Below are positions 5,972-46,460 of a DNA stretch of 64,000 nucleotides, in pieces. The position numbers and the translations under genes were made by a program. Each line of letters starts with the position of its first letter. The first letter of the stretch is position 1. The notes below the pieces were generated by a model that saw only the letters and a list, made by a program, of their open reading frames with translations, was not told the DNA's origin and ran no database searches. This DNA comes from Thermoanaerobaculia bacterium (GTDB lineage: Bacteria; Acidobacteriota; Thermoanaerobaculia; Multivoradales; Multivoraceae), in the NCBI GenBank assembly GCA_963664405.1, contig OY761158.1, positions 1,568,001-1,632,000 of the forward strand, read 5' to 3'.

Positions 5972-8722
5972 CTACCCTGTGTTTTTTAGGCCAGCGGCAA
6001 GGCCGTTGATGGTCAAGAGCAGTGCTCGTCGCAGCGAGCGATCGGGCTCGCCGGCGAGGGAGCGCTGACGTTTGAGCAGCGCGATCTGCAGGTAGCTGAG
6101 CGGATCCAGGTAGGGCGCTCTCACCCGCAACGTCCGCTGCAGTGTCGGCTGCCGCTCGAGCAGCTCGGTCTGACCTGTCACCCACAAGACGTTGCGCACG
6201 GAGCTCTCGTGCTCGGCCTCGATGTCGGCGAAGATCGAATGCAGCTCGGGGCGCACCAACTCTTCTACGTAGCGCCGCGTGATCTCGAGGTCGGTCTTGA
6301 CCAGGGGCATCTCGACGCTCGAAAGGAGGGTCTGGAAGAAGCTCCACTCCTGGTGCATCTCCTTGAGTACCTCACCGAGCCCTTCCTCTCGGCCTCGCTC
6401 CAGCGCGGCACCGACGCCGTACCAGCCAGGCACGATCTGCCGCGACTGCGTCCAGCCGAAGACCCACGGGATCGCCCGCAGGCTGTCGATACCGGTGATC
6501 TCGCCGCCGCGTCGGGCCGGCCGCGAGCCGATGTTCATCTGGGCGAGCTCCTCCACCGGCGTCGAGGTCAGGAAGTACTCGACGAATCCTTCGCGCTCGA
6601 CCAAGGAGCGATAGTGCTGGTAGGCGATGGCGGACAGCCGGTCCATCGCTTCCCACCAGCGCTTGCGCACGGCTGCATCATGACGCGGCTCGGTGTGGAG
6701 CAGCGAAGCCTCGGTCACTGCCGCCAGCATGAGCTCCAGATGAGCTTCGGCAATGCCGGCGTTGCCGTAGTGATCGGAGATGACCTCGCCCTGCTCGGTG
6801 AGCTTGATGCGGCCGTCCACGGTGAGTGAGGGCTGAGCCAGGATGGCGTCGCGCGCCGGGCCACCGCCGCGGCCCGCGCTGCCACCGCGGCCGTGAAAGA
6901 GCATCAACGAGATGCCGTGGCGAGTGGCACAGTCACGAAGTGCGACCTGGGCACGATAGAGCTCCCATTGCGAGGTGGCGATGCCGCCGTCTTTCGACGA
7001 ATCCGAATACCCGACCATGACTTCAGCCGTATCGCCCTGGAGCTCGACGATCCTACGGACCGTGGGATCGGCCCAGTAGCGATCCATCACCTCGGCGGCA
7101 CAGCGTAGGTCCGCGACAGTCTCGAAGAGCGGAACCACCCGCAGCCGGGCGACCCCGGCGTGAGGATCCACCAGTCCAGCTTCCTTTGCCAACACGAGAA
7201 CGGCCATCAGATCCGAGCGATCGCGAGTCATCGAGATGATCCAAGTATCGAGCGCCTCCTCGCCGTAGCGATCCTGCGTCTCGCGCACCAGACGCGCGAG
7301 ATCGAGAACCTCTCGTGTGTGCGAGCTTGGCTCGGTAGAGGGGAGGCTCAAGGGGCGGCGGCCGGCGAGCTCGGTGGCGAGGATCTCGGCCCGCTCTCGC
7401 GGCGACCGTGCACCGAAGCCGGCACCCTCGGAATCGACGCGGTCGATGAGCTCGGCGACCGCCGCGTTGGTGACACTCGAGTCCTGGCGGATATCCATCG
7501 CCGCCAGTGTGAGCCCGAAGGTCTCGACGTCACGGATGAGGCGCTCGAGGCGGCCGCGGGCTACGTTGCGCCCGCGATGCGCCATCAGCGAGCGGTGCAT
7601 GACCAGGAGGTCCCGACGCAGCTCGCCTGCGCTCGAGTAGGTCGGGCCCGGCGGCGGCGCCCAGCTACGAGCTACCGCCAGGCCGTTCACCAGGCTCTCG
7701 TAAATGTAAGCGCAGTGCAGTCGGTAGGGCTCGTCGCGGTTGATCCGTCCGTAGCTCTCCCAGGCACCGGGCAGAGCCTCTTTGTGCCGCGCGAGTGATT
7801 GTCGTAGCTCCGCCGAAACCTCGACGATCAGGGAGGACTGGCTGAGCTCCGTGGCAAGGGCACGGACCTCGTCACGCAGCTTGCGCAGCGCGCGCTCTGC
7901 CTGGAGCCCGAGCACTTCGCGGGTTACGGCTGCGGTCACGTAGGGATTGCCGTCGCGATCGCCTCCCACCCAGGTTCTCAATCGCAGCGGGCTGCGAGGC
8001 TCCGACGGGCTCGCCCCGTGCTCCGCGAAGGCGTCGTCGAGCCGGTCTGCAGCGGCAGCGGCGATGCCGCCGAAGAGGCGCTCGAGGTAGTAGATGACGT
8101 TGCGAGCCTCGTCGAGCGGTCCTGGGCGCTCCTGACGCAGCTCGTCGGTCTGCAACATCGCCTCGATGAGCTCGACCATCCTCTCGCGGCCAAGCCGGCG
8201 TGAGCGCCCGCCGTCTTTAGCGTCTCTTCCGAGCTGGGTGTCCATCGCCTGCAACTTATCGAGGATCGAGCGCCGCGCCGCCTCGGTAGGATGAGCGGTG
8301 AAGACGGGACTGACGCGCAGTCGCGCGGCAAAGGCTGCGAGCTCTCGAGACGACACGCCGGCCTCGACCGCCCGCTCGAGCACATTCTCGATCCGGTTCT
8401 CCGCAGCCAGGAAGGAGTCGCCGACGCGGTGGTGCTGCTCGGCGGTGTTGGCGATGTGGAAGTAGCTGGTGAAGGCACGGACGAGACGCAGCACCTCCTG
8501 CATCGAGGCCCCATCGAGCTTCGCGAAGAGCTCCTTTCGCTCGGCCTCGACGGGCCTCGCCCGAAGAGTCCGGGTGGCGAGACGCACGCTCTCTTCCAGC
8601 TCGAAGAAGTCCTCGCCCCACTGGTCACGGATGACCGCGCCGAGGATCTCGCCGAGCTCGCGAATATCGGTCCGAAGCGCGGCATCGTCCTTAGCTGCAG
8701 CGTTCGGGTCGCGTCTTGCCAC
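5972..8722 (-). CDS. ppc: Phosphoenolpyruvate carboxylase
   Basis: VFTAHPTE, WVGGDRDGNP, MVGYSDSSKDGG, FHGRGGSAGRGG, LRAIPWVF and C-terminal GLKNTG. Start placed at GTG 8722 to avoid overlap with the upstream gene. Confidence 0.95.
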   Translation of the reverse strand: MARRDPNAAAKDDAALRTDIRELGEILGAVIRDQWGEDFFELEESVRLATRTLRARPVEAERKELFAKLDGASMQEVLRLVRAFTSYFHIANTAEQHHRVGDSFLAAENRIENVLERAVEAGVSSRELAAFAARLRVSPVFTAHPTEAARRSILDKLQAMDTQLGRDAKDGGRSRRLGRERMVELIEAMLQTDELRQERPGPLDEARNVIYYLERLFGGIAAAAADRLDDAFAEHGASPSEPRSPLRLRTWVGGDRDGNPYVTAAVTREVLGLQAERALRKLRDEVRALATELSQSSLIVEVSAELRQSLARHKEALPGAWESYGRINRDEPYRLHCAYIYESLVNGLAVARSWAPPPGPTYSSAGELRRDLLVMHRSLMAHRGRNVARGRLERLIRDVETFGLTLAAMDIRQDSSVTNAAVAELIDRVDSEGAGFGARSPRERAEILATELAGRRPLSLPSTEPSSHTREVLDLARLVRETQDRYGEEALDTWIISMTRDRSDLMAVLVLAKEAGLVDPHAGVARLRVVPLFETVADLRCAAEVMDRYWADPTVRRIVELQGDTAEVMVGYSDSSKDGGIATSQWELYRAQVALRDCATRHGISLMLFHGRGGSAGRGGGPARDAILAQPSLTVDGRIKLTEQGEVISDHYGNAGIAEAHLELMLAAVTEASLLHTEPRHDAAVRKRWWEAMDRLSAIAYQHYRSLVEREGFVEYFLTSTPVEELAQMNIGSRPARRGGEITGIDSLRAIPWVFGWTQSRQIVPGWYGVGAALERGREEGLGEVLKEMHQEWSFFQTLLSSVEMPLVKTDLEITRRYVEELVRPELHSIFADIEAEHESSVRNVLWVTGQTELLERQPTLQRTLRVRAPYLDPLSYLQIALLKRQRSLAGEPDRSLRRALLLTINGLAAGLKNTG

Positions 8723-8753
8723 CGGGTACCTCAGAAGCTCTTCCCGTTCCCCA

Positions 8754-9110
8754 TCAGCTCTTCTGATAGTGGGGCTGGTACAGCTCCACCTCGAAGTCAC
8801 CCGGCATCTTGAAGTGGGTCACGAGACCGAAACCCGCATCGACGATCCCGTCGCTGAACTCGACTCCCTTTTCTCGCATCTCGGCCACGGTCTCTTCGAT
8901 GTCGTCGCAGTAGAAAGAGATGTAGGGAGTTCCCGAAGTTTCTCCGTCGGTCGTCTCGGCGGGGTGGCAACCCATATCGGCCTCAGGAAGGTTGAAGATC
9001 AGCCATCCATCGCCGACATCGGTAAAGGGGAAGCCGAGCTTGTCGCGGATGAAGGCGCGCAGGGCCTCGGGCTCCGAGGTGTAGAACATGGTGTGAACGC
9101 CTTTGATCAT
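8754..9110 (-). CDS. VOC/glyoxalase-family protein
   Basis: 118 aa; IKGVH..FY, FIRDKLG, ISFYCDDIEETVAEM...GVEF, VELYQP pattern. Confidence 0.85.
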   Translation of the reverse strand: MIKGVHTMFYTSEPEALRAFIRDKLGFPFTDVGDGWLIFNLPEADMGCHPAETTDGETSGTPYISFYCDDIEETVAEMREKGVEFSDGIVDAGFGLVTHFKMPGDFEVELYQPHYQKS

Positions 9111-13358: not shown

Positions 13359-14069
13359 TCACTTCAAACGCAACTTCTTGAGCAGGCCCTTCTTGGCCTC
13401 CTCCTTCTCTTCTTCGACCGCCTCGTCCACCGCTTCTTCGACCGCCGCCCGCATCGCCTGCTTGACCGCCCCGCCGATCTCGCTCAAAAGCTGAGAGAAG
13501 ACCTGGGAGGCGATCTCTTCGCCGGTGCCCTCGAGGTTGTTGAACACCATCTCCCGAATGTTGAGATCGATGGGCTCGTCGCGCTCTTCACTCGACAAGG
13601 TGGCGACCGCGGCCTCGATCTCGATACGGTCGATGCGCAGAGAGACCGGCTCGCCCTCCTCGTCGACCGCCTCGGACTCTTCAGGCGGTGCATCACTCGA
13701 AAGGCCGGAGAGCAGCTCGTCGAAATTGCTGGTCTCGCCCTTCGACTCGGCTCGGATCTGGGTGTCGGCAACTCGAATCAGACTAATGGCCCCCGCGTCG
13801 GCATCGAGAGAGAGGGTGAGCTCACCCAGGGCAAGGGCTGAGTTGCGACTGTAGCCTGGAGGGTTGGCGACCTCGAGCCCGCGAATCGTTCCGCGGCCCT
13901 CGGAGAGATGTAGCTCGACGGCGGCAACCGAAACGTCGACGCCGAGCATCTTGGTGCCGATGCTCTCGATCGCCGCCTTGGCGATCCCATCGAGATTCGA
14001 GCCCACGAACATGAGCAAGCCGACGATCACAACGACCACAACACCCAAGCCAATGAGCACCTTCTTCAT
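13359..14069 (-). CDS. AsmA-like/DUF748-like membrane-anchored protein
   Basis: MKKVLIGLGVVVVVIVGLL anchor and GLEVANPPGY motif. The first 14 aa of the track ORF derive mostly from the adjacent repeat element. Confidence 0.7.
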   Translation of the reverse strand: MKKVLIGLGVVVVVIVGLLMFVGSNLDGIAKAAIESIGTKMLGVDVSVAAVELHLSEGRGTIRGLEVANPPGYSRNSALALGELTLSLDADAGAISLIRVADTQIRAESKGETSNFDELLSGLSSDAPPEESEAVDEEGEPVSLRIDRIEIEAAVATLSSEERDEPIDLNIREMVFNNLEGTGEEIASQVFSQLLSEIGGAVKQAMRAAVEEAVDEAVEEEKEEAKKGLLKKLRLK

Positions 14070-14080
14070 CGAACGTCCCC

Positions 14081-14245
14081 CTAGACCAGCGTTTCCAAAG
14101 TTCGTGTACATAGGTCGAGGTCATTCTGTTCGCTGGCCAGGCGCGCCGACGCAGGCATATTGGGCAATATGTCGAGGAGGCGAAACGACGCCAGCGGACA
14201 GAAGGGGCCGAGATATGTGCGCGAACTTTGGAAACGCTGGTCTAG
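14081..14245. mobile_element. CTAG-bounded palindromic MITE-like element, copy 1 (165 bp)
   Basis: 24-bp perfect terminal inverted repeat CTAGACCAGCGTTTCCAAAGTTCG; near-identical copies at 41741, 46485 and 58599. Confidence 0.9.
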
Positions 14246-14361
14246 TATCGATCCGTGAACGTCGATCCTATCCTGGTGAGCGGTCTCGCTAGAGAGAGTA
14301 AGATGGCTCGGCCCGAAGACCGAGGTGAGTGCAAGGCTGACGATGAGAGGAGCTCGATTCG

Positions 14362-15054
14362 ATGAGTGAACGGCGACCGACCCCGGAGATGGTCGACGGG
14401 ATGCCCATCAGCTACCCCGCCGATTGGCGCACCATCCCGGAAGACAGGTGGCGCTCGATGCGCACGACGCCCGAGGCGTATGAGCGCATGCGAGAGCTTC
14501 GCATCGAGCGCGAGCGACGGACTCCGGCGGTGGGAGACCCGGCGCCCGATTTCGAGCTTCCGATGTTGGTCGAGGGCAGTCCGGATCGCAATCGGACAGT
14601 GCGTCTCTCCTCGCTGGTCGGCACACCCGTCGGGCTGGTCTTCGGCTCCTATACCTGACCGCCCTTCCGGGTCCAGTTGGGCCGGCTCAACGACATCTAC
14701 CGCAGCTACGGGGAAAAGATGAGCTTCTTCTGCGTGTACATCCAGGAGGCCCACCCCGAAGACGGTTGGCAGGTGGAGTGGAATCTCGATGAGGGCCTGA
14801 TCTACAACCAGCCCGTCACCCTCGAGGAACGAGGCGAGATCGCCAACACCTGTGTCTTGCGCCACTCCGTGGAGATGCCGGTTCTCCTCGATGAGATGGA
14901 CAACGAGGTCGACCGTCTTTACGCCGCGCTTCCCGAGCGGCTCTATGTCATCGATCGCGAAGGGCGGGTGGCGTGGAAGAGCATCATGGGCTCTGGCGGC
15001 TTCGACGCGGAGGCCTTCGCCGACGCGGTGAGGCTGGCCTACCGGCCAGGTTGA
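14362..15054 (+). CDS. Iodothyronine deiodinase-like selenoprotein (Sec at TGA 14656-14658)
   Basis: Track ORFs 14362-14658 and 14677-15054 are in one frame, separated only by TGA. Read-through gives APDFEL...LVFGSYT-U-PPFR, YIQEAHPEDGW and YAALPERLYVI, the conserved deiodinase motifs, with U at the catalytic Sec/Cys position. Confidence 0.9.
14667..14685 (+). promoter_or_regulatory. Putative bacterial SECIS hairpin
   Basis: CCGG(G)TCC-AGTT-GGGCCGG stem-loop starting 8 nt after the TGA, with a G in the apical loop. Confidence 0.55.
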
Positions 15055-15081
15055 GATCGGGGGATCGCGACTAGTCCCCGA

Positions 15082-15405
15082 TCACTTCCGACCCTTGCCT
15101 TTCTTCTTGTCGGCCTTGCGAAGCTCTTTCTCGATCTTCTTGAGGCTCTTCTTGGTCTGGACGTCCTCTGGAGGTCCCTTACCCTTGTTCTTGTCGGCCG
15201 TTCGCAGGGCCTTCTCGACCTCCTTGGCTGCCTTCTTCGCCTCTTTGTCTTTGGGCGGCCCCTTCGTCGCCGTCGCCGCTCCAAATCCTCCTGCGACCGA
15301 GTAGGTGACGGCCACGAGGCCGGAGGCCAGGCTCTCAACAGCCGCGAGGGGAGTGGCTGCAAGCACAGCGATAAGTAGTATCGGGAGCGAGCGGGCAGGA
15401 CTCAT
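15082..15405 (-). CDS. Small Lys-rich protein with N-terminal hydrophobic segment
   Basis: 107 aa; two internal repeats KGPP(K/E)D...KK..K..EK.LR.ADK.KGKG; SD GGAG upstream. Confidence 0.55.
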   Translation of the reverse strand: MSPARSLPILLIAVLAATPLAAVESLASGLVAVTYSVAGGFGAATATKGPPKDKEAKKAAKEVEKALRTADKNKGKGPPEDVQTKKSLKKIEKELRKADKKKGKGRK

Positions 15406-15512
15406 ATTCGGCTCCAGGAGTCTCTCAAAAAAATCGAAACTGGAGGGAATTCATTATAGCGGGCGACCCACCTCAGTGCCTCCACGTTCACGCCGACGGG
15501 CTCTTCGCCCGA

Positions 15513-18961: not shown

Positions 18962-19031
18962 CGTGTTGCTCCAACAGGCGTTGAGTTGATCGTTCAGAGC
19001 GGCAGGGTCGGCTTCGGCCCGGCGTAAAGGG

Positions 19032-20235
19032 TTATCGCCGGCTCGGCATCGCGAGCGGGCTGACCGGAGAAACTACGGTCAGGGTCTCCGTCTTGGGTCT
19101 GTAGCACACCGTAGCGCTGCAGGCTTGATAGTCGACTCTCACCGGGATCTCCATGACCTCGGGTTTGTCCTGAATGGTCCAGTTCATCACCTCGGAGGTC
19201 AGGGATACCGGGACGGCGATATCGACGACACCTTCGTAGACATCCAGCGTCACTCCCAGAGCCTCGAAGGTCTTCGGGCTGGTGGCCGGATAAGAAGGGG
19301 TCCCGACTTCGCAGTCCTGGAGTCTCGTCGATGCTCACTGTGGTTGCGAAATAGCCGTCCGGGAGGTCGCCGCTGTAGACGTGCAGGCCTTCTTCGAGCT
19401 CGAGGCGCACATAGAGCACGCTGTGATACTCGAACTTCAGCGACTCATCCGCCAAGAAGGCGGTGATCTCGACTTGGTCGTTACGCAGAGACTCGTTGGG
19501 CGCCTCTTTCGGCATCAGCACGTCGCCCAGGGCCGAATCCACGATCGACCCAGCGGAGGCCCGGCTGGCGTAGTGGCGGTAGAAGAACTTCTCGGTGACC
19601 ACGCCCGACTCATCGGTTACGTAAACGCCCGGGAAGGGCAGGCCGTACATCCTCTCCGAGTCTTCCGGAGCGATCAGCGTGTTGAGGATGCCGAACTTCT
19701 TGATCACCTCCGAATCGACATCGGAGAGGAGGTCATAGCTCAAATCGTACTGATCCACGAAGGAAGTGAGGCTGGATTGCGGGTCGTAGCTGACGCCATA
19801 GACCTTGACATTGTCTGAAGCGAGATCTTCCATTCGGTTGTGCAACTCGACCAGTTGCGTGCGGCAGTACGGTCACCAAACAACGGAACGGTAAAAGACC
19901 ACAATCGCCTTGGAGTCGCCGCGGTCCTGATGGAAGTCGACCAGCTCCCCATTCTGATTGGGGAGTGAGAACTCCGGCAGGCGCTCCCCCACTTCAGGAC
20001 CGGTGAGGAATTCCCAGGTAGCCGGATATCGCCGCCCGGGGGAGCTGACCGGCGCCCTCGGCACCGTAATGCCCAGGTCGTCGGTCTTCTCGTCGGCCGC
20101 CATGCCTTCGTGGGCGCCGCGCACTGTCACCCCGCCGTCCTGGGCCCCGGCGCCCCCGGCCGTCAAGGCGACTCCGAGAAGGAGAGCTATCAGTCCGTAG
20201 AGTCGACCACTGCTCGTCATCGATGTGTCCGTCAT
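19032..20235 (-). CDS. Exported peroxiredoxin-like (AhpC/TSA) UxxC selenoprotein fused to a DsbD N-terminal-like domain; one frameshift near 19310
   Basis: ORF 19873-20235 ends FYRSVVW-TGA and continues in frame PYCRTQLVEL...GVSYD...LLSD...FGIL...PFPGVYV. Removing one base near 19311 joins it to ...YEGVVDI...YQACSATVCYRP (ORF ending 19032). Confidence 0.8.
19842..19858 (-). promoter_or_regulatory. Putative bacterial SECIS hairpin
   Basis: Minus strand GCAACT-GGTCG-AGTTGC: perfect 6-bp stem with GGT in the loop, starting 14 nt after the TGA at 19875-19873. Confidence 0.65.
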
Positions 20236-20287: not shown

Positions 20288-20806
20288 CTAGGCCGCGTTT
20301 GCGAGCTCGTCTGTAATAGCACGCGGCGAGCGGAAGCGTAATGGGCGCCTCGCCGTGCAGGAACGGACCCGGGCTGTTCTCGAGCTTCTCTTCCCAGTAC
20401 GAGTACTGGCGTCGGTACGCTTCGACGCTGGCCGGCTTGGATTCCGTGCCAACCGCTTCAGGGCCAAGTAGAAGTACAAGACCGTGAAGCCAAGCAGGAA
20501 GTGGTGCAAGAGTCGGCGCCGCAGCTGCGGAACTCCGTCTCGCACCAAGCTCCATCGGTGCCAGAAGTGCGCGGCGCTATCGACGCGGTGGATCCCCCCG
20601 CGAAGCGCTCGACTCAAGCCGAGCATCTCCTCGCTAGAAACCGCCTGAAAACCGAGCGCGCGCAGAATGGACTCGGACTGCAGGAGCCACGGTCCGCCGT
20701 CCAGACTCGCGGCCGGCATCAAGATTCCGCTGTTCCGAAACACGGAGAGCGGCGGAACGAGGGCCACGGTGTGCGGAATCCCGCGCTCGTGGATTCCCAA
20801 AAGGAC
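20288..20806 (-). pseudogene. Glutathione S-transferase-like remnant
   Basis: VLLGIHERGIPHT...LMPAASLDGGPWLLQSESIL (GST-N-like). After a frameshift YWEEKLENSPGPFLHGEAP (GST-C-like), then truncated; the 5' end is missing. Confidence 0.55.
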
Positions 20807-20807
20807 C

Positions 20808-21105
20808 GTTGCTCCTCCGCCGAGCGGCGGCCTTCCCCTTATGGCAGGAAGGTCGGCTCCAGCGAGAAACTTTCGGGGCCTTCTCAGGGTTCACTCACGT
20901 TGCGGCCTGCACCTTTGCCCTCTGGACTTTCTCCAGATATTCCGGAGGCTTCAGCCGATCGGTCACCCGATTCGACTGCTCCGGCGGCTACCGGGGTGTA
21001 CCGACAACTCCCCGGGCGCGACTCTCACCCGCCGGCCTTCGAGACCCAGAGGTCTCCTATCTCTGTCTTTCGATCAGATCATCAGATTCCTCCTTCGTGT
21101 CGCAC
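20808..21105 (-). mobile_element. Group II intron 5' fragment (domain I only)
   Basis: Minus strand starts with the GTGCG 5' splice consensus (GTGCGACACGAAGG). It contains GGGTGAGAGTC..CCGG...CCGGTAGC, GCTGAAGCCTCCGG, GCAGGCCGCAACGTGAGTGAAC and GCCGACC...GGGGAAGGCC, segments I recognise from group II intron domain I. No RT ORF or domain V seen. Confidence 0.7.
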
Positions 21106-21303
21106 TGCCAGCCGACTATTTCAGGGAGGCGCCGGCTCGGGCTCGCTAACTCGGTCCCGCGGTGAGCCTGGATCCCTCGAGACTGCGGAGAACAGCCGGT
21201 TCCAAGCACTCTGTACTTTCCGCGATCACCTAGGGGTCACCAATCTGGCGGTGGGAGGCGGCCTCCGCGCACCCAGTCGCCACTGTCCCCCTCACCGTCG
21301 CCA

Positions 21304-21356
21304 CCATCATCGCCATTGTCATTGCCATCATCGCCATTGTCATTGCCATCATCGCC
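21304..21356 (-). repeat. 2.5 x 21-bp tandem repeat in an orphan Gly/Asp-rich C-terminal tail
   Basis: CCATCATCGCCATTGTCATTG repeated; minus strand reads GDDGNDNGDDGNDNGDDGGDGEGDSGDW...PDW* (stop 21237-21239). Confidence 0.7.
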
Positions 21357-21367
21357 GTCGTTGGGGT

Positions 21368-22493
21368 TGTGGGGGGCGAAAACCCAACTGTCCTAGGCCG
21401 CGAGTCGTCGACGGTATCGATGGTGTAATCCACCGACCAGCGGGAACGCGATTACGTCGCCCATCTCGGGCGGCTCGACGCACGGGGCACGGGACAGTCG
21501 TTCTCCAGCGACTGGTGAGTGCGCGTATCATGGTAGTAGGCGACGTAGCTGCGGAGAACTCGGCGGTGATGCTGCTCATTGAGGACCACAAGACATGGTC
21601 GAGGCACTCACGACGCATGGAGCCAATCAGCCGTTCGCAGAACGGATTCTGCCAGGGTGAGTGGGGCGCAGTCTTGACCTCTTCGATACCGATCGACTCG
21701 ATGCATCTGGCGAACTCCCCCGAGGAACTTCGTGTCGTTGCCACGGAGTAAGTAACGAGGAGCGGTGTCGTAGGGAAACGCCTCGAGGAGTTGCTGAGCG
21801 GTCCAGGCGCTGGACGGCGAGTCGGTTACGTTTGAGTGGATGATTCTGCGGCGGTCGTGCGACATGATGATCAGGACGTATAGGACTCGAAACGTCGCCG
21901 TCGGCACGGTAAAGAAATCGATGGCTACCAGGTCCTCGACGTGATTGTCGAGGAAGGCTCGCCAGGTTTGCGACGGTGGCGTTTGCCGCTTTGGCTTGTA
22001 CGTGGCGACGGTGGAATCGCTAACGCTGATGCCGAGCTTGGCGAGTTCAGACTGAATTCGCCGCTTGCCCCAAGTCGGATTGACGTTCCAAATGTCGCGG
22101 ATCAGCTTGCGCTGCTCGGGAGCGATCCTCGGTCGGCCTCCCTTGGGTCGGCTTTTCCGGCGCCAGTAGTACCTGAATCCAGCGCGATGCCCGTTGATGA
22201 TGGTGGCAGGTTGGACCAGTTGGAGCCCATCGCGCCAGTTGGGCCACACATGCTCCAGGCAGATCCAAAAGAGTCGGTCATGGTCTTCGAGTTGCGGCTT
22301 GGTCGACCGGCGATGGAGTACTGCGAGTTGGTGGCGAAGCGCGAGGTTCTCTAGCGCCAGATCGCACCTCGGCCGGAGACTCGACACGGCACTGCGAACG
22401 ATGGTTCGGAGTAGTTCCCACATAGGATGCCGACTCTACCGACCGGTACGGAAGGTGAGTGACTTCGGGGCGGACGGGTATTCGCCCCCCACA
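21368..22493 (-). mobile_element. IS481-like insertion sequence (1126 bp)
   Basis: Terminal IRs TGTGGGGGGCGAAAACCC (21368) and GGGTATTCGCCCCCCACA (22493), 17/18 match, with TGT..ACA ends. No flanking direct repeat. Confidence 0.8.
21393..22423 (-). pseudogene. Integrase-core (DDE/rve) transposase, frameshifted
   Basis: LENLALRHQL, NPTWG..RI..EL.KLG, AIDFFTVPT; then in other frames SPWQNPFCERLIGSMRRECLDH and GGLHHRYRRRLAA*. Confidence 0.85.
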
Positions 22494-27792: not shown

Positions 27793-29856
27793 ATGAACCT
27801 CGCGCGGAGGCCGGCTGTGCCGGTCATCACGATCGCTGCGACACTCCTTCTCGCTGCCGTCAGCGCCGGCGAGAATGTCGACTGGCCGCGCTTCGGTAAC
27901 GATGGCGGCAACGGGAAATACTCCACCCTCGACCAGATCGACGCCGACAACTTCGACCAGGTCGAGGTGGTCTGGACCTGGGAATCGGTCGACGCTCAAC
28001 TCGAGGACCGGGTTGAAGGCGCGCAGAAAGGCGGCGTAGCGCGCCCCGATCCGGAAGACGGGTTCGCCCTCGCCAACGCCGCGGAGAACGGACTGCCCAC
28101 GCAGGTTCGTCCGGGACCTTTCAAAGCCATTCCGGTGGTGATCGACGGGCGAATGTACGTGAGCACCGCTCTCGGACAGGTTGCGGCGATCGACGCGGCC
28201 TCCGGCGAGCCGCTGTGGAGCTACGATCCCCAGAGCTGGGAGGCCGGGCGACCGGCGAATATGGGCTTTCAGCATCGAGGCGTGGCCTACTGGCAGCGGG
28301 GCGACAAGAAGCGCGTGTTGATGCCGACGCACGACCGCCGCCTGCTTTCGCTCGACGCCATGACCGGCAAGCCGGACCCCGACTTCGGCAGATACGGCGC
28401 GGTGGCGATGACCAAGGATCTCGGTCGCGACATCACCGAGTCGAGGACGACCCACAGCTCGCCGCCCTCGCTGTGTCGTGACCGGGTGATCGTCGGCTCG
28501 ATCGTGTCCGATATTCCAAGCTACAAAGAAGCGCCCCCGGGGCATGTGCGCGCCTACCATGTCGAGAGTGGCGAGTTGGCGTGGGTCTTCCACACCATCC
28601 CCCAGCCGGGTGAAGAAGGCCATGAGACCTGGGAGGAGGGTTCGTGGAAGTACACAGGCGCCACCAACGTGTGGTCCCTGATCTCGGTGGATGAAGAGCT
28701 CGGCCTCGCCTATCTTCCGATCTCGACGCCGACCAACGACCTCTACGGCGGCCACCGCCTGGGAGATAACCTGTTCGCCGAGAGTCTGGTAGCCGTCGAT
28801 TGCGAGACCGGAGAGAAGCGCTGGCACTTCCAGATGGTGCACCACGGCCTGTGGGACTACGATCTGCCGACGGCGCCGACCCGGATCGATGTGAAGGTCG
28901 GGGACAAGCTGGTCAAGGCGGTGGCGCAGCCGACCAAGCAGGCCTTCCTCTTTGTTTTCGACGCCGAGACCGGCGAGCCGCTGTGGCCAATCGAAGAGAA
29001 GCCGGTGCAGACAGGGACGGTGCCGGGAGATCGCGCCTCACCGACCCAGCCCTTCCCCACCAAGCCGGCGGCCTACGACTACCAGGGGATCTCCGAAGAC
29101 GATCTCATCGACTTTTTGCCGGAGCTTCGCCGCGAGGCACTGGAGATCGCGGCCGACTACGAGCTGGTGCCGCTCTACACGCCCCCGCGTCTGGAGGGTG
29201 AGGGCAAACCGACGATTCAGCTCCCTGCCGATGGCGGGGGTACCAACTGGACCGGCGCCGCCGTCGATCCCGAGAGCGGCCTGATCTATGTGCCGTCCCT
29301 CACTCGACCGGTTACCGTCTCGCTGACCACGCCGGACCCCAATCGCTCGAATATGCGCTACACGCCGAGCCGCTGGTACGACGGCGTCCAAGGTCCCCGT
29401 GGCTTGCCGCTGGTGAAGCCGCCCTACGGCCGGATCACCGCCATCGATCTCGCCACCGGCGAGCATGCCTGGGTGGCGGCGCACGGGGAGGGGCCGCGCA
29501 ACCACCCCGCGCTCCGGGAGCTCGGTCTCGGTCGACTCGGTGCGACGAATCACACTGCGGCACCGCTGGTCACCAAGACCCTCCTCTTCGTCACCCTGCG
29601 GGCTGAGAACACGACCGGCGGCAGCCGGCGGGAACCCGATCGACCGGCCGAGATCAGTGTCTACGACAAGAAGAGCGGCGCCTACCTCGGTGGCATCGAG
29701 CTCCCGGACTCGCCCAAGTCGAACCTCATCACCTACGAAGTGGATGGCCGGCAGTATCTCGCCGTCAGCGTCGGTGGGGGGCGCTCGACGATCGGCGGCG
29801 GCGGAACCCCGGCCCGGGTCGTCGCCCTGGCACTCCGTTCGCCGGGAGCCCCGTGA
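27793..29856 (+). CDS. PQQ-dependent dehydrogenase (quinoprotein glucose dehydrogenase-like), paralogue A
   Basis: KYSTLDQID..N, RGVAYW, NVWS...DEELG..YLP, WHFQMVHHGLWDYD, SPTQPFPTKP, KPPYGRITAIDL. Confidence 0.9.
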   Translation: MNLARRPAVPVITIAATLLLAAVSAGENVDWPRFGNDGGNGKYSTLDQIDADNFDQVEVVWTWESVDAQLEDRVEGAQKGGVARPDPEDGFALANAAENGLPTQVRPGPFKAIPVVIDGRMYVSTALGQVAAIDAASGEPLWSYDPQSWEAGRPANMGFQHRGVAYWQRGDKKRVLMPTHDRRLLSLDAMTGKPDPDFGRYGAVAMTKDLGRDITESRTTHSSPPSLCRDRVIVGSIVSDIPSYKEAPPGHVRAYHVESGELAWVFHTIPQPGEEGHETWEEGSWKYTGATNVWSLISVDEELGLAYLPISTPTNDLYGGHRLGDNLFAESLVAVDCETGEKRWHFQMVHHGLWDYDLPTAPTRIDVKVGDKLVKAVAQPTKQAFLFVFDAETGEPLWPIEEKPVQTGTVPGDRASPTQPFPTKPAAYDYQGISEDDLIDFLPELRREALEIAADYELVPLYTPPRLEGEGKPTIQLPADGGGTNWTGAAVDPESGLIYVPSLTRPVTVSLTTPDPNRSNMRYTPSRWYDGVQGPRGLPLVKPPYGRITAIDLATGEHAWVAAHGEGPRNHPALRELGLGRLGATNHTAAPLVTKTLLFVTLRAENTTGGSRREPDRPAEISVYDKKSGAYLGGIELPDSPKSNLITYEVDGRQYLAVSVGGGRSTIGGGGTPARVVALALRSPGAP

Positions 29857-29872
29857 TATAAGCGTCGCTACC

Positions 29873-31837
29873 GTGCCCCCCCTCAAGACCCTGCTATTCG
29901 CCTCCTGCGCCGCATCGCTGCTCCTCGCCGCCGTGGCGACGCCTGCCGATACCGACTGGCCCCACTTCGGCAACGACGCCGGCAATACGAAGTACTCACC
30001 GCTCGACCAGATCGACGCCGACAACTTCGACCGCGTCGAGGTGGTCTGGACCTGGGATTCGGTCGACGGTCAGCTCAAAGACCTGCCAAGCGCCGTACGC
30101 CCAGGGCCTTTCAGACCGATCCCGGTGGTGATCGACGGACGTATGTACGTGAGCACCGCGCTCGGCCAGGTAGCAGCGATCGACGCCACCAGCGGCGAGC
30201 AGCTGTGGAGCTACGACCCGCAGAGCTGGGAGGCGGGGCGGCCGGCGAATATGGGCTTTCAGCATCGCGGAGTGGCGGTCTGGCACAAGGGCGAGAGACA
30301 ACGAGTGATGATGGCGACCCACGACCGGCGCCTGCTCTCGCTCGACGCCATGACCGGCAAGCCCGATCCGGCCTTCGGCAAGTACGGCGCGGTGGAGATG
30401 ACCAAGGATCTGGGGCGCAAGATCCTCGAGTCGCGCACTACACACAGCTCGCCGCCGGCGATCTGTCGCGACACCGTGATCGTCGGCTCGATCGTTGCCG
30501 ATATGGCCACGCATCAAGAGGCACCGCCCGGTTTCGTGCGCGCCTATGATGCCGAGAGCGGCGCCCTGGCGTGGGTCTTTCACACCATCCCCCAGCAGGG
30601 AGAGGAGGGCACAGAGACCTGGGAGAACGAGTCCTGGCGCTACAGTGGCAACACCAATGTGTGGTCGATGATCACCGTCGACGAGGAGCTCGGCCTCGCC
30701 TATCTTCCGATCGGCACGCCGTCGAGTGACCTCTATGGCGGTCATCGCCTCGGCGACAACCTCTACGCCGAGAGCCTGGTGGCGGTCGACTGCGAGACCG
30801 GCGAGAAGCGCTGGCACTTCCAGATCGTGCACCACGGCCTCTGGGACTATGACCTGCCACCGCCGCCGAACAGGATCGACCTCGTGGTGGGCGGCAAGCT
30901 CCGCAAGGTGGTGGCGCAAGCCAGCAAGCAGGCCTTCCTCTTCGTCCTCGATGCCATGACGGGAGAGCCGCTGTGGCCGATCGAAGAGCGTCCCGTGCCG
31001 CCGAGCCAGGTGCCGGGGGATCGTGCCTCGCCGACCCAGCCTTTCCCCACCAAGCCCGCCGCCTACGATCGCCAGGGCATCAGCACCGATGATCTGATCG
31101 ACTTCACGGCCCAGCTTCGGAAAGAGGCCCTCGAGATCGCGAGTGCGTACGAGCTGGCGCCACTGTACACACCGCCTCGCGTCACGGGCGAAGGTAAGCC
31201 GGTGATCCAACTACCCAGTGAGTGGGGCGGCACCAACTGGACCGGCACCGCAGTCGACCCCGAAACCGGCATGATCTACGTGCCTTCCCAGACCAGGCCG
31301 GTATCCGTCTCGCTCACCCTGCCCGACCCCAATCGCTCGAATCTACGCTACGTGCCGGACGGCTGGTACGAGCGAGTCGAGGGTCCGCGTGGTCTGCCGC
31401 TGGTCAAACCGCCCTACGGACGCGTCACCGCGATCGATCTCGCGACCGGCGAGCACGTCTGGGTAGCGGCCCACGGTGAGGGGCCGCGCAACCATCCGAC
31501 GATCAAGCACTTGGGCCTGGATCGGCTGGGCTCCCCGAACCACGTAGCAGCGCCGCTGGTGACCAAGACTCTGTTGTTCGTCACCCATCGTGCCGAGAAC
31601 ACCACCGGCGCCGATCCCACCACCACGGATCGACCGGCCGAGATCAGCGTTTACGACAAGAAGACCGGGGCCTACCTCGGCGGCATCGAGCTTCCCGATT
31701 CGCCCAATTCGAACCTCATCACCTACGAAGTCGACGGTCGTCAGTATCTCGCAGTGAGCGTCGGCGGCGGAAGCGACCCGGGCGAGAGCGACGACACTCC
31801 GACGGGCGTCGTTGCGCTCGCGCTCGCCCCACTCTAG
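29873..31837 (+). CDS. PQQ-dependent dehydrogenase, paralogue B (tandem duplicate of A)
   Basis: Same motifs and long near-identical stretches with 27793-29856; start set at GTG 29873, before the signal peptide. Confidence 0.9.
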   Translation: MPPLKTLLFASCAASLLLAAVATPADTDWPHFGNDAGNTKYSPLDQIDADNFDRVEVVWTWDSVDGQLKDLPSAVRPGPFRPIPVVIDGRMYVSTALGQVAAIDATSGEQLWSYDPQSWEAGRPANMGFQHRGVAVWHKGERQRVMMATHDRRLLSLDAMTGKPDPAFGKYGAVEMTKDLGRKILESRTTHSSPPAICRDTVIVGSIVADMATHQEAPPGFVRAYDAESGALAWVFHTIPQQGEEGTETWENESWRYSGNTNVWSMITVDEELGLAYLPIGTPSSDLYGGHRLGDNLYAESLVAVDCETGEKRWHFQIVHHGLWDYDLPPPPNRIDLVVGGKLRKVVAQASKQAFLFVLDAMTGEPLWPIEERPVPPSQVPGDRASPTQPFPTKPAAYDRQGISTDDLIDFTAQLRKEALEIASAYELAPLYTPPRVTGEGKPVIQLPSEWGGTNWTGTAVDPETGMIYVPSQTRPVSVSLTLPDPNRSNLRYVPDGWYERVEGPRGLPLVKPPYGRVTAIDLATGEHVWVAAHGEGPRNHPTIKHLGLDRLGSPNHVAAPLVTKTLLFVTHRAENTTGADPTTTDRPAEISVYDKKTGAYLGGIELPDSPNSNLITYEVDGRQYLAVSVGGGSDPGESDDTPTGVVALALAPL

Positions 31838-31879: not shown

Positions 31880-33349
31880 ATGAGCAAAAAACAAACGCGA
31901 CGGGAGTTCCTCCAGCAATCTTCTCGGCTTGTCGCCGGCACGGCGCTGGCCGGGCAGGTTGCGACGGGCGTCGAGGCACAAGAGGAGCGCCCGCCCAACA
32001 TCCTCTTCTTCTTCCCCGATCAGCACCGCCCCGACTGGATCGGCTACGGTCCCGACGCGCTGCCCATCTCGACTCCCAATCTGGCGCGTCTGGCGCGCAC
32101 CGGAGTCAGCTTCAGCCGCGCCGGCGTCGCCTCTCCTGTGTGTGCTCCCTCTCGGGCCTGCCTAGCATCCGGGCGGGAGTACGACCGCTGCGGAGTGCGC
32201 AAGAACGGCATCGTGTATCCACGGGATCGCTACACCTACTACAGTCTGCTGCGAGACGCCGGCTACCACACCATGGGCGTAGGCAAGCTCGATCTCGCGC
32301 AGGGCACGATGGACTACGGCTCGACTCACGCCGACGCCTGGGGCTTCTCGGCGATGATCAACGGCGCCGGCAAGAGCGCCGGCATGCGCGCGTATCTCCG
32401 CGAGCCGGTCGGCCCCAAGGGCCCCTACTACGAATATCTCGACTCTCTGCAGCCACCTCAAGGCCGCATCTGCGCCGACGACCTGGCCAAGCGCTACTCC
32501 AACTTTCCCGACAGCTGGTGGGGCGACACTTATCCCTCGCCGCTGGACCACGAGCACTACAACGACAACTGGATTGCGCGCAATGGCCTCAAGCTTCTCG
32601 AGGAGGCGCCCGCCGACAAGCCCTGGCATCTAGTCATCAACTTCGTCGGCCCCCACCCCTCGGTCGACATCACCCGCCAGATGGAGCGAACGGTGCGCGG
32701 CCCTGACCGGGTCGTGGAGGGTCTGCCGACGCCTCACCACTACAAAGGTGCACTGAGCCCCGAAGAGCACGTCCGCACGCGTCAGAACTACACCGCCATG
32801 ATCGAGAACATCGACGGCTGGCTCGGCCGTTATCTCGACATGCTCGAAGAGACCGGCCAGCTGGAGAACACGATCGTCGTCTACAGCTCAGATCACGGCG
32901 AGATGCTGGGAGACCACGCCCGCTGGGGCAAGTCGGTGCCCTACCAGGCGTCCCTCGGCGTACCGCTGCTGGCGGCGGGTCCGGGAATCCGTGCCGGCGT
33001 CCAGAGCGACGCCCTCGCCAGCATCATGGATCTGGCCGCGACCTTTCTCGACTACGGTGGGGTCGACCGGCCCTCCGACATGGACAGCCGCTCGCTGCGT
33101 CCTCTGCTCGAAGGCCATACCGACAGGCACCGAGAGGTACTGCTCTCGGGTCTTTTGACAGGGGAAGGCGATTGGCGCCTGGCGTGGGACGGCCGCTACA
33201 AGCTGCTGCGAGACTTCGGCGAAGAGCAGTATCAACTCTTCGACCTCGAGGCCGACCCGCTCGAGACCCGCAATCTGGCCTCCCGCGAGCCGGGTCGTGC
33301 TCGAAGCCTGAGAGAGTGGTTACCGGAGGGTTTCGAGGAGCCAGCGTAG
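31880..33349 (+). CDS. Tat-exported Cys-type sulfatase
   Basis: TRREFL Tat motif, PNILFFFPDQH, CAPSRA, SDHGEMLGDH. Confidence 0.9.
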   Translation: MSKKQTRREFLQQSSRLVAGTALAGQVATGVEAQEERPPNILFFFPDQHRPDWIGYGPDALPISTPNLARLARTGVSFSRAGVASPVCAPSRACLASGREYDRCGVRKNGIVYPRDRYTYYSLLRDAGYHTMGVGKLDLAQGTMDYGSTHADAWGFSAMINGAGKSAGMRAYLREPVGPKGPYYEYLDSLQPPQGRICADDLAKRYSNFPDSWWGDTYPSPLDHEHYNDNWIARNGLKLLEEAPADKPWHLVINFVGPHPSVDITRQMERTVRGPDRVVEGLPTPHHYKGALSPEEHVRTRQNYTAMIENIDGWLGRYLDMLEETGQLENTIVVYSSDHGEMLGDHARWGKSVPYQASLGVPLLAAGPGIRAGVQSDALASIMDLAATFLDYGGVDRPSDMDSRSLRPLLEGHTDRHREVLLSGLLTGEGDWRLAWDGRYKLLRDFGEEQYQLFDLEADPLETRNLASREPGRARSLREWLPEGFEEPA

Positions 33350-33479: not shown

Positions 33480-33881
33480 CTAGCGGGGCCTTATCTCGAC
33501 GAACCCTGCTGCGGCGAAATCGCCGTCGTAGGCGAGAGCCTCGGTCAATCGCAGACCCTCCATCAGGGCAAAGCTCGTCGCATCGACGAACGAGTACTCT
33601 CTTTCGTCGTGATGCAGCAGCCAACGCAGACCTCGTGCCTCCTGGTCAGGGGTGACCACGTCGACGCGGATTCTAGGCGAGCTCTCGAGCGAGTCGAGGA
33701 AAGCAACAGCAGAGCGATGATCTGCCTTCCTTCGCAGGTACGTCCAGGTCTCGCCACGAACGTGGTTGCTGGTGACGAAGCCCGAGCGTTCTCTCTGGCG
33801 GAGGATTGCAACAGCCTCTTGGTGGTGCCGGTCCCGCCGATTCCGAAGAGCCACGAAGAACGACGTGTCGATGAAGATCAC
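33480..33881 (-). CDS. vapC: VapC/PIN-domain toxin
   Basis: IFIDTSFF, V..ET, YSFVDATSFALM, YDGDF...GF. Confidence 0.9.
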   Translation of the reverse strand: MIFIDTSFFVALRNRRDRHHQEAVAILRQRERSGFVTSNHVRGETWTYLRRKADHRSAVAFLDSLESSPRIRVDVVTPDQEARGLRWLLHHDEREYSFVDATSFALMEGLRLTEALAYDGDFAAAGFVEIRPR

Positions 33882-39499: not shown

Positions 39500-39507
39500 C
39501 CAGGAGG

Positions 39508-46369: not shown

Positions 46370-46460
46370 ACAAGATAGCAACACGCCACGGTCCAGCTGT
46401 TCTTCTGACTCCATGGTGTAGGCTCTGCGGCCTATGACTCGAAAAAGGGGAGAGACCGTG

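Follow-up and report, generated by a model that had tools for sequence, protein, structure and literature searches.

An in-frame TGA at the catalytic position of a bacterial deiodinase-like gene from a Thermoanaerobaculia genome

In a 64-kb stretch of DNA from a Thermoanaerobaculia bacterium (contig OY761158.1; the whole stretch is referred to below as the window), two neighbouring open reading frames share one frame and are separated by a single TGA, in the context LVFGSYT-TGA-PPFR. The locus raises the question of whether this codon ends a protein or is read as selenocysteine (Sec) in the active site of an enzyme related to the iodothyronine deiodinases, as the initial annotation had proposed, and what reaction such an enzyme might catalyze. 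The features of the gene considered here are as follows.

14348..14352, + strand: Shine-Dalgarno-like AGGAG, 9 nt 5' of the ATG at 14362 (direct sequence reading)
14362..15054, + strand: deiodinase-like gene (PF00837), 230 codons plus terminal TGA, with the internal TGA read as Sec
14641..14670, + strand: active-site motif F94-G-S-Y-T-U99-P-P-F-R103, from alignment with Dio3 and Dio2
14656..14658, + strand: in-frame TGA, proposed Sec codon 99 (TGA in homologues, Cys in database relatives)
14737..14769, + strand: Y126-I-Q-E129-A-H131-P-E-D-G-W136, start of the deiodinase-specific insertion, with residues matching the Dio hydrogen-bond/proton-relay network
14851..14853, + strand: TGT codon of Cys164, invariant across both the Sec and the Cys forms, a candidate resolving cysteine
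15052..15054, + strand: terminal TGA at the end of the same frame, taken as the stop

Reading frame and coding signals

The upstream ORF (14362..14658; 98 aa, ATG start) and the downstream ORF (14677..15054; 125 aa, TTG start) lie in the same frame of the + strand. Inspection of the sequence and its translation confirmed that the frame 14362-15054 is interrupted solely by the TGA at 14656-14658, codon 99, which is the only stop between the two ORFs. The motifs described earlier downstream of this codon were found intact in the translation, YIQEAHPEDGW as residues 126-136 and YAALPERLYVI as residues 187-197. The third-position GC content of the frame is 0.80 before the TGA and 0.86 after it, and therefore both halves of the gene look coding. 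TGA terminates 14 of the 36 long ORFs in the window, the deiodinase-like gene itself included, and is thus an ordinary stop codon in this organism. Promoter and terminator scans of the region 14050-15450 found nothing. The sole Rfam match in the window was a group II intron fragment, with no family at the site of the TGA and the hairpin that follows it.

The N-terminal part of the protein, about 50 residues long, had been described as Arg/Pro-rich and as taking the place of a membrane anchor. The first 55 residues of the read-through protein do contain 12 Arg and 7 Pro, and no hydrophobic or membrane segment was detected in it (maximum Kyte-Doolittle 19-residue mean of 1.04). This segment is common to homologues, with the pattern ISYPADWR.IP..W..M.MTPE.Y in the read-through products, and judging from these alignments it is a conserved extension rather than a loose linker.

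Codon 99 and the downstream stem-loop in homologous copies

In an alignment of 68 sequences, the column of codon 99 was occupied by Cys in all 31 full-length database homologues, while G95, S96, Y97, T98, C/U99, P100 and R103 were invariant. The first alignment, with 27 homologues, gave 17 Cys, one Trp and nine fragments beginning just past the column. Short entries of this kind are frequent: 35 of the 120 homologues among the matches listed span 126-135 residues and begin immediately past the TGA column, which is explained by annotation halted at the TGA. The single Trp, in database homologue P0005, most likely results from a gene caller reading TGA as Trp.

At the DNA level, codon 99 is TGA in 63 of 63 homologous copies and at 61 of 65 related genome loci (the other four lack that part of the gene), although these figures do not give an unbiased family-wide rate, because the loci were scanned with peptide patterns drawn from the Sec clade. 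The TGA-bearing loci span seven named phyla: Pseudomonadota (28 of 31 loci), Myxococcota (14 of 14), Chloroflexota (8 of 9), Acidobacteriota (3 of 3), Binatota (2 of 2), Verrucomicrobiota (1 of 1) and Thermodesulfobacteriota (1 of 1), with a further 4 of 4 unassigned. The tblastn matches run across the stop, covering residues 16-223 or similar. Since homology crosses the stop and the TGA is conserved in every copy, the arrangement is beyond chance.

Two hairpins can be drawn in the window downstream of the TGA.

14667..14685, + strand: candidate bSECIS hairpin of 7 bp with one bulged G and apical loop AGUU (14675-14678), -8.9 kcal/mol
14676..14691, + strand: alternative hairpin GUUGGG-CCGG-CUCAAC, -5.7 kcal/mol, overlapping the 3' arm of the stem common to the family

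The first of these starts 8 nt past the TGA, as had been noted before, and its UGA-to-loop spacing is 16 nt. A published bSECIS model (PMC13188914, Fig. 2 legend) specifies a loop of 3-9 nt, a stem of 4-16 bp, a G within the first two nucleotides of the loop, a distance of 16-37 nt from the UGA and an energy of -7.5 kcal/mol or lower. The hairpin at 14667-14685 satisfies all of these constraints, with its spacing at the lower limit. However, 406 of the window's 1490 TGA triplets (27%) also pass them, so that the hairpin alone is weak evidence. The model is permissive in such GC-rich DNA. Folding of the region 14650-14720 was no better than that of shuffled sequences (z = +0.92), and for 51% of the 1490 triplets the sequence downstream folds with an energy as low or lower; by itself, the window hairpin is not beyond chance. 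The alternative hairpin fails the model, as its first two loop nucleotides lack a G and its energy is above -7.5 kcal/mol.

The homologous copies give a family-level signal. The same bSECIS model (PMC13188914) is met by 51 of 60 copies, among which the 16-17 nt register of the window is a minority (8 of 60). The consensus stem of the family is 81.3% paired, compared with at most 43.8% when the partners are slid; compensatory changes occur at four pairs, and the observed score was reached by none of 500 shuffles. In the window this common register is weak, at -1.2 kcal/mol with the five formable pairs and +2.5 with a sixth, against a family median of -9.0. Codons +6 to +10 past the UGA have a synonymous-codon entropy of 0.32 (median 0.73), the lowest of 112 five-column windows, with dominant codons such as CGC (52 of 58), CTG (50 of 60) and CAG (53 of 54). 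A tblastn search of plasmids produced no match and hence no Cys-form DNA with which the stem-loop could be compared as a negative control.

Another TGA-containing gene, Prx-like, is located 5 kb away on the minus strand (18994-20235). Its in-frame TGA lies in the motif W-U-PYC (UxxC), for which Cys homologues read WCPYC, and a hairpin with a GGUCG loop is found 20 nt past its UGA. The gene is frameshifted relative to a 97%-identical homologue. The presence of a second TGA gene of a known selenoprotein type at such a short distance suggests that the organism decodes Sec. No matching Pfam match for selA, selB or selD was obtained among the 52 ORFs of the window, and no tRNA (tRNA-Sec included) was identified in the 64 kb.

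Three other accounts of the TGA have to be weighed against this evidence. Were it a real stop, in a pseudogene or through an assembly error, nothing functional would lie past codon 98; the chance-level hairpin of the window would fit such an account, and the frameshift in the Prx-like neighbour indicates that reading frames are at times broken in this stretch. However, a nonsense mutation would not be common to 61 loci in seven phyla, and neither the protein conservation and high third-position GC on either side of the TGA nor the constraint on synonymous sites right after it is expected of a dead frame, so that we regard this account as extremely improbable. We consider it equally hard to believe that the locus encodes two proteins, an N-terminal one of 98 residues and another of 125 residues initiated at the TTG at 14677. 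Gene callers have indeed reported C-terminal pieces of this kind, the 126-135-residue database entries, but these are accounted for by annotation ending at the TGA; the split would also cut the thioredoxin fold at the active-site motif and lose the catalytic residue, whereas the full-length Cys forms are single chains.

Readthrough with an amino acid other than Sec, that is Trp, Cys or Gly through a reassigned code, or near-cognate suppression, might be invoked because the 64-kb window shows no Sec machinery and because P0005 carries Trp at the column. A reassigned code is at odds with the use of TGA as a terminator by over a third of the long ORFs of the window, and the column concerned is that of the catalytic Sec of the animal enzymes, at which the bacterial Cys forms have Cys. 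The family-wide stem-loop lies at bSECIS distance after the codon, and the family is treated as Sec-containing in published analyses (PMC1088965). Non-Sec readthrough is on these grounds very unlikely, and the UGA at codon 99 of the window gene almost certainly encodes selenocysteine.

Family membership and active-site residues

The read-through protein matched Pfam T4_deiodinase (PF00837) over residues 85-215 with an E-value of 2.1e-23 (83.3 bits, cut-off 27). The match to AhpC-TSA (PF00578; 3e-9, 37.3 bits, cut-off 26) was much weaker and therefore indicates kinship at the superfamily level only. NCBIfam NF038285 (deiodinase_rel, 'deiodinase family protein', a hypothetical equivalog) gave 2.7e-51 and 175.1 bits, under its 250-bit cut-off: positions 174-342 of the 347 in the profile were matched, corresponding to the C-terminal catalytic half, and the ∼170 N-terminal positions have no counterpart. 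Among solved structures, Dio3 (4tr3) was found at 2.9e-16 with the single sequence and at 1.1e-31 with the family profile, and Dio2 at 1.4e-27 with the profile. All other solved thioredoxin-fold proteins scored 3.3e-8 or weaker with the profile, those of ResA and TlpA type lying between 1e-4 and 1e-8; Dio3 and Dio2 beat any Prx or TlpA structure by more than 20 orders of magnitude. In these alignments the codon-99 TGA falls on the catalytic Sec position, FGSYT-TGA-PPF pairing with the Dio3 sequence FGSCT(U->C)PPF and the Dio2 sequence FGSAT(U->C)PPF; the crystallised Dio constructs carry a Sec-to-Cys substitution (PMC11592359). The proposal of a deiodinase-family gene with UGA at the catalytic position was thus borne out by the profile match, both structures and the homologous codons.

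The protein resembles animal Dio1-3 (Dio3 4TR3, Dio2 9H48) in its FGS.T-U-PPF motif, the EAHP.DGW insertion, the ERLY motif, the relay Ser, Thr, Tyr, Glu and His together with a Trp, and, judged by sequence, a thioredoxin/Prx-like fold. The relay network of Dio2 is formed by Ser127, Thr129, Tyr157, Glu160, His162 and His182 (PMC11592359). Five of these six are matched here (S96, T98, Y126, E129, H131), in addition to W136; across the 68-sequence alignment Y126, E129 and H131 do not vary, and W136 hardly does. The distal relay His, His182 of Dio2, aligns with the nearly invariant Pro151. The thyronine-contacting Arg275 and Phe258 of Dio3 correspond to Met209 and Pro191, respectively. Because these two residues are replaced and no hydrophobic segment is present, the protein belongs to the family by sequence without being a thyroid-hormone deiodinase of the animal type; animal Dio1-3 possess an N-terminal membrane anchor, and their SECIS element is located in the 3'UTR, whereas the candidate element of the window gene lies in the coding region. 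Cys164 was invariant in both alignments (27 homologues; 68 sequences), in Sec and Cys forms alike, and is the bacterial family's own; Cys239 of Dio3 aligns with Met172 instead. This conservation makes it a candidate resolving cysteine.

With peroxiredoxins of the AhpC-TSA type and with TlpA/ResA, the protein shares an N-terminal APDF strand, a nucleophile located where helix 1 begins and the pattern P-E-R-L-Y-V-I-D-x-x-G. Unlike them, it has the deiodinase insertion, and it contains neither a CxxC nor a standard Prx motif.

A bacterial family of deiodinase-like selenoproteins was described in 2005 by Zhang, Fomenko and Gladyshev (PMC1088965) and is also listed in PMC2398784, PMC9312934 and PMC13188914. 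The existence of such proteins, mentioned in the initial annotation, has accordingly been in print since that date, and the window gene adds to a known family. It shares with the 2005 family PF00837, the in-frame UGA, Cys homologues and a bacterial-type stem-loop directly after the UGA; members of that family came mostly from uncultured environmental bacteria, and the window gene shows no difference in kind. Two reviews tag the bacterial family as UxxC, whereas all 63 copies analyzed here read U-P-P-F; the GOS paper gives no motif. The best database relative, among the matches listed, is 76% identical (P0004), and P0010, P0011 and P0016, also among the closest, stand at 60-61%. The subclade of the window copy is marked by Leu instead of Ala at +7 and by GSGGF close to the C-terminus, and longer fused forms of the family also exist, with many matches of 300-900 residues. 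Taken as a whole, the gene product is very probably a soluble, cytoplasmic, 230-residue bacterial deiodinase-like selenoprotein (PF00837) in which the TGA is read as Sec.

Proposed catalysis and possible substrates

In the mechanism we propose, the ribosome would read the UGA of codon 99 as Sec after recruitment of SelB with Sec-tRNA(Sec) by an mRNA stem-loop just 3' of the UGA, most likely the candidate at 14667-14685, whose AGUU loop is 16 nt away from the UGA. No comparable element stands at a suitable distance from the TGA at 15052, and translation would terminate there. The enzyme is predicted to adopt a thioredoxin/peroxiredoxin-type fold with the deiodinase-specific insertion, in which the U99 selenolate would attack an electrophilic atom of the substrate, while S96, T98, Y126, E129, H131 and W136 would form a hydrogen-bond network as in Dio2/Dio3, R193 being part of the ERLY motif. 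A thiol, most plausibly that of the invariant Cys164, would resolve the Se-X intermediate so formed (a selenenyl halide or selenenic acid), and the selenenylsulfide would then be reduced by a thioredoxin-type reductant.

The gene context was analyzed for clues to the substrate. Clustering of 556 neighbouring ORFs revealed no conserved partner: once pieces of the gene itself and its antisense shadow were set aside, no family occurred in more than eight loci. A Pfam scan of 105 proteins (103 nearest-neighbour ORFs, of the 110 produced, and two window ORFs) showed heterogeneous neighbours, among them flagellin, EamA, FolD, enoyl-CoA hydratase, MerR and radical SAM proteins, and no sel genes. Neither the clustering nor the Pfam scan revealed anything tied to aromatic or halide metabolism among the neighbours, and the dehalogenation idea is not favoured by the gene context.

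As mere estimates, we put a small halogenated phenolic compound, undergoing reductive dehalogenation, at less than an even chance, a hydroperoxide or other redox substrate somewhat lower, and something else at the rest. As a tentative hypothesis, bacterial deiodinase-like proteins of the Sec type, which occur in at least seven phyla, may be corrinoid- and flavin-free reductive dehalogenases of natural iodo- and bromophenolics (halotyrosines, bromophenols) that use the selenolate and proton-relay chemistry of animal deiodinases; thyroid-hormone deiodination would then have descended from an ancient microbial enzyme that detoxified organohalogens or salvaged halide. Against such a reading, the equivalents of Arg275, the distal His and Phe258 are not conserved, and natural Cys forms are common, though Sec-to-Cys replacement lowers Dio activity ∼1000-fold (PMC11592359). 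We found no activity assay of a bacterial deiodinase-like member in the literature. We would not expect thyroid hormones to be substrates.

That the protein is a peroxidase of peroxiredoxin-like type, or a redox protein dependent on thiols, rather than a dehalogenase, is a possibility that we hold at well short of even. The AhpC-TSA match above the cut-off, the abundance of Cys forms, the invariant second Cys and the lack of thyronine-specific residues all point in this direction. The arrangement of Ser/Thr, Sec/Cys and the Arg of ERLY also presumably resembles the Prx catalytic triad. A redox role was suggested by the discoverers of the family (PMC1088965). On the other hand, the deiodinase-specific insertion and five of the six relay residues (S96, T98, Y126, E129, H131), together with W136, are conserved from bacteria to animals and are not a feature of ordinary peroxiredoxins, and the gap separating Dio3 and Dio2 from every Prx or TlpA structure also weighs against this alternative.

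The finding will be no surprise to specialists. For annotation it matters that the gene would otherwise be called as two fragments or missed, as the many C-terminal pieces among the matches listed illustrate, and its correct reading identifies the organism as one that uses Sec. A soluble member of 230 residues that retains the deiodinase motif and most of the relay is therefore convenient for testing whether Se-dependent dehalogenation predates animals.

The reading frame and its protein family

The candidate gene consists of two open reading frames parted by a single TGA:

14362..14658, forward strand: ORF 1, 98 aa, ATG start
14656-14658, forward strand: internal TGA, codon 99, within LVFGSYT-TGA-PPFR
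14677..15054, forward strand: ORF 2, 125 aa, TTG start, in the frame of 14362..14658

This same-frame arrangement, proposed in the initial annotation, was seen in both the ORF scan and the translation of 14362-15054. The TGA at codon 99 is the sole internal stop, the frame ends with a terminal TGA, and the motifs YIQEAHPEDGW and YAALPERLYVI, which had been described as intact, follow the internal TGA in frame. The GC content at third codon positions is 0.80 upstream of the internal TGA and 0.86 downstream, so that the frame looks coding on either side of it. AGGAG lies 9 nt upstream of the ATG at 14362. The hairpin reported to begin 8 nt past the TGA was also confirmed (14667-14685), and the sequence description was accurate throughout. 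A 9-bp GC-rich inverted repeat directly past the stop (15055-15083) separates the gene from a convergent one (15082-15405, reverse strand); it is without a T-run and does not exceed shuffles (z = -0.94).

The 230-aa read-through protein matched Pfam T4_deiodinase (2.1e-23; 83.3 bits, cut-off 27) and AhpC-TSA (3e-9). NCBIfam NF038285 ('deiodinase family protein') scored 175 bits, under its 250-bit cut-off, with the match confined to the C-terminal half of the 347-position profile. The only strong matches among solved structures were the mouse iodothyronine deiodinases Dio3 (4TR3) and Dio2 (9H48), at 2.9e-16 and 4.3e-13 in a single-sequence search, values that improved to 1.1e-31 and 1.4e-27 when a profile of 68 sequences was used (next thioredoxin-fold protein, 3.3e-8). 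The internal TGA aligns with the catalytic position of both enzymes, which is shown as Cys in the two structures because selenocysteine (Sec) was swapped for Cys in the crystal constructs for expression (PMC11592359).

A search of a 5.8-billion-protein collection gave 160 matches, and the 120 listed fall into two length classes: full-length proteins of ~205-260 residues, and 35 proteins of 126-135 residues covering 47-54% of the query. An alignment of 27 of these 120 contained (i) 17 proteins with GSYT-C-P at the TGA column, (ii) nine fragments starting directly past it, as expected of gene callers ending at the TGA, and (iii) P0005 (188 aa, JGI; 55% identical), with Trp at this column (GSYTWPPFR), probably a TGA translated by the source's gene caller under a Trp-reading code. 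To the window protein and 36 read-through locus translations, a further alignment added 31 full-length proteins from databases, every one of which carries Cys at the Sec column; G95, S96, Y97, T98, P100, R103, Y126, E129, H131, N141, R157, C164, D177, Y187, P191 and G210 are invariant. The family is large: when 1.84 billion cluster representatives were searched with a profile, 524 proteins passed E <= 1e-30 and 3617 passed E <= 1e-10, and many of them carry additional N-terminal domains. The T4_deiodinase membership and the Sec/Cys column anticipated by the initial annotation were both recovered, and its identification of a deiodinase-like selenoprotein is right.

Conservation of the TGA codon and the downstream stem-loop

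To cover genomes, 185,579 species representatives were scanned with the peptide patterns CVYIQEAH and [LRA][YF][AN]ALP[ED]RLY, both drawn from the Sec-type clade, yielding 65 loci (38-58% identity). The motif [ST]-stop-PPFR was found in 61 loci as 63 copies, and the stop was TGA in all 63. Since the patterns derive from the Sec clade, this count cannot be taken as an unbiased estimate of Sec against Cys across the family. A private nonsense mutation or sequencing error at 14656-14658 is ruled out by this uniformity.

Loci with TGA at the motif, by phylum
Pseudomonadota: 28 of 31
Myxococcota: 14 of 14
Chloroflexota: 8 of 9
Acidobacteriota: 3 of 3
Binatota: 2 of 2
Verrucomicrobiota: 1 of 1
Thermodesulfobacteriota: 1 of 1
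Unassigned phylum: 4 of 4

The four loci without the motif region are N-terminally truncated (L058 and L062, Rhodospirillaceae contigs whose copies are without everything 5' of the SECIS region) or end at a contig edge (L064, L065). Two loci hold two Sec-type copies each, ~700 bp apart (L001 at 470 and 1150; L034 at 6238 and 6993), and a Terriglobia copy (L063) has an extra frame break directly upstream of the active site, which may be a long-read indel.

In a quick tree (FastTree) of the 68-sequence alignment, a minimum of three changes between Sec and Cys is required, whereas shuffled states average 22.7. Ten sequences, all with Sec, form the clade (local support 98) in which the window protein groups with copies from alpha- and betaproteobacteria, apart from the eight Chloroflexota copies. 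This grouping is at odds with the PEP carboxylase encoded at 5972-8800, whose relatives, where named, come mainly from Chloroflexi and Dehalococcoidia MAGs (53-66% identity), and hints that the selenoprotein gene may have been laterally transferred.

The 60 nt from the TGA onward were aligned for 60 homologue copies and the window. A family stem occupies columns 17-23/29-35, lengthened by 10-14/36-40, with a 5-nt loop whose sequence is CGUGC in 29 of 61 cases. Paired cells make up 81.3% of the stem, compared to at most 43.8% after sliding the 3' partners. Two-sided changes occur in four pairs (e.g., UA to CG in eight sequences, CG to GC in three), and the covariation score was reached by none of 500 column shuffles; RNAalifold alone recovered the four central pairs and no more. 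Codon use in majority-amino-acid sequences is strongly skewed at +6 (CAG, 53/54), +8 (GTG, 30/33), +9 (CGC, 52/58) and +10 (CTG, 50/60), and codons +6 to +10 form the minimum of normalised synonymous entropy (0.32, median 0.73) among 112 five-column windows over 149 codons. This synonymous constraint is independent support for a family recoding signal.

The consensus model of the bSECIS, the bacterial hairpin directing Sec insertion, specifies in its figure legend (PMC13188914, Fig. 2) a loop of 3-9 nt on an upper stem of 4-16 bp; G within the first two loop positions; UGA-loop spacing of 16-37 nt; and energy <= -7.5 kcal/mol. As so stated, it is satisfied by 51 of the 60 homologue copies, with a spacing of 20-21 nt in 42, 16-17 nt in eight and 30 nt in one. 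The window's own candidate lies within the gene:

14667-14685, forward strand: candidate bSECIS hairpin, 7 bp, one bulge, loop AGUU, -8.9 kcal/mol

It satisfies all four constraints in the minority 16-17 nt register (spacing 16 nt), with stability equal to that of the usual family hairpin. The majority register, where the homologues' median is -9.0, is absent: five formable pairs give -1.2 kcal/mol, and +2.5 with a sixth. The window codons are CAG TTG GGC CGG CTC, against CAG GCN GKN CGC CTG in the family. An alternative hairpin (14676-14691, loop CCGG, -5.7) fails the model. The closest listed relatives, P0004 (76%) and P0010, P0011 and P0016 (60-61%), start at or beside the Leu matching TTG, which suggests that they share the hairpin variant.

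The hairpin described in the initial annotation passes the model, but so do those at 406 of 1490 background TGA triplets in the window (27%; 19% at <= -8.9). Folding of 14650-14720 showed no gain over shuffles (z = +0.92), and 51% of the 1490 triplets have equal or better downstream folding. Taken alone, the hairpin is weak evidence for recoding. The case that UGA at codon 99 would be read as Sec is nonetheless strong, and comes from comparison rather than from this hairpin alone.

A second TGA-bearing gene and the surroundings

A reassigned genetic code is unlikely because, of the window's 36 long ORFs, 14 end in TGA (TAG 19, TAA 3), 14362-15054 among them. No tRNA genes were found in the 64 kb, and none of 52 ORFs matched selenium-pathway families. 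A second gene lends indirect support to Sec use by the organism:

18994-20235, reverse strand: peroxiredoxin (Prx)-like candidate selenoprotein, in-frame TGA 19873-19875, VVW-U-PYC
19842-19858, reverse strand: GCAACU-GGUCG-AGUUGC hairpin, 20 nt past the UGA, -8.0 kcal/mol

The read-through matches the full AhpC-TSA profile (3e-28), and its hairpin satisfies the bSECIS model as stated in that legend. Full-length homologues P0425 and P0481 carry WCPYC, while the others are mostly ~260-280-residue fragments starting past the TGA. The layout is that of a selenoprotein fusion described in PMC9402790, a Prx-like U/CxxC domain joined to DsbC/DsbD_N (PF11412). The N-terminus resembles a putative signal peptide (hydrophobic stretch LYGLIALLLGVALTAGGAGA). 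The gene seems frameshifted at ~19300-19340, inside the C-terminal DsbD_N domain, whose second half (7e-9, profile positions 50-117) lies in a different frame at 19032-19334; P0393, 97% identical, is continuous through it. The break is due either to an error of sequencing or assembly or to decay of the gene.

Mobile-element debris adjoins the gene (20288-22423, reverse strand), with a group II intron D1-D4 fragment (20895-21034, 96 bits), for which no reverse-transcriptase ORF was detected, and a split IS3-like transposase (HTH_32/HTH_21 in 21608-22423, rve_3 in 21349-21744). The region 29465-63788 encodes many PQQ-dependent dehydrogenases (29465-31837, 34039-36033; PQQ_2 at 38093-39511; a C-terminal fragment at 60509-61471). 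Three sulfatases (31880-33349, 46434-48161, 53797-55245) and three PIN-domain genes (33480-33881, 37375-38048, 50955-51374), one with an RHH partner, were also observed.

Active site, possible substrate and place in the family

In animal deiodinases the Sec nucleophile is described as accepting the halogen, formally I+, and the oxidised selenium as being resolved by a Cys; a hydrogen-bond relay (Ser127, Thr129, Tyr157, Glu160, His162 and His182 in Dio2) and a conserved Trp border the deiodinase-specific loop (PMC11592359). The window protein conserves the first five relay residues (S96, T98, Y126, E129, H131) and the Trp (W136). The distal His182, by contrast, is replaced by P151, nearly invariant in the alignment, and Dio3 Arg275, Phe258 and Cys239 by M209 (variable), P191 (invariant) and M172. 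Cys164 is invariant in Sec and Cys forms of the bacterial family, and from this conservation we propose it as a candidate resolving thiol. The first 55 residues are Arg/Pro-rich, as first noted, and conserved with homologues (ISYPADWR.IP..W..M.MTPE.Y); no hydrophobic segment is present, and the enzyme is therefore soluble, with these residues as a conserved extension at its N-terminus.

The enzyme may follow a peroxiredoxin-like cycle, in which selenolate attack would give an Se-X intermediate, then a selenenylsulfide between Sec and Cys164, reduced by a thioredoxin-type donor. Judged from sequence, dehalogenation of a halogenated phenolic is a tentative assignment, somewhat short of an even chance. 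The deiodinase-specific insertion and the relay are kept, and similarity to deiodinases is far above that to any Prx. However, the thyronine contacts are missing, the gene context is uninformative, and natural Cys forms are abundant, though replacing Sec by Cys is reported to cost animal deiodinases ~1000-fold in activity (PMC11592359). A peroxide or other redox substrate is a realistic candidate, with a probability clearly below even.

Bacterial deiodinase-like selenoproteins were reported in 2005 from the Sargasso Sea as four Sec and six Cys sequences; bacterial SECIS elements were described and a redox function was suggested (PMC1088965). The GOS study lists 22 selenoprotein sequences of the family in a table that gives no motif (PMC2398784), and two reviews include it with the motif UxxC (PMC9312934, PMC13188914), a small discrepancy with the U-P-P-F of all 63 copies and the animal enzymes. 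Among the papers returned by a full-text literature search, none assaying a bacterial member was found. The window gene is a further member of this described family, and specialists will find nothing unexpected in it; its value for annotation is useful, and the biochemical question that it raises is genuine and long-standing.
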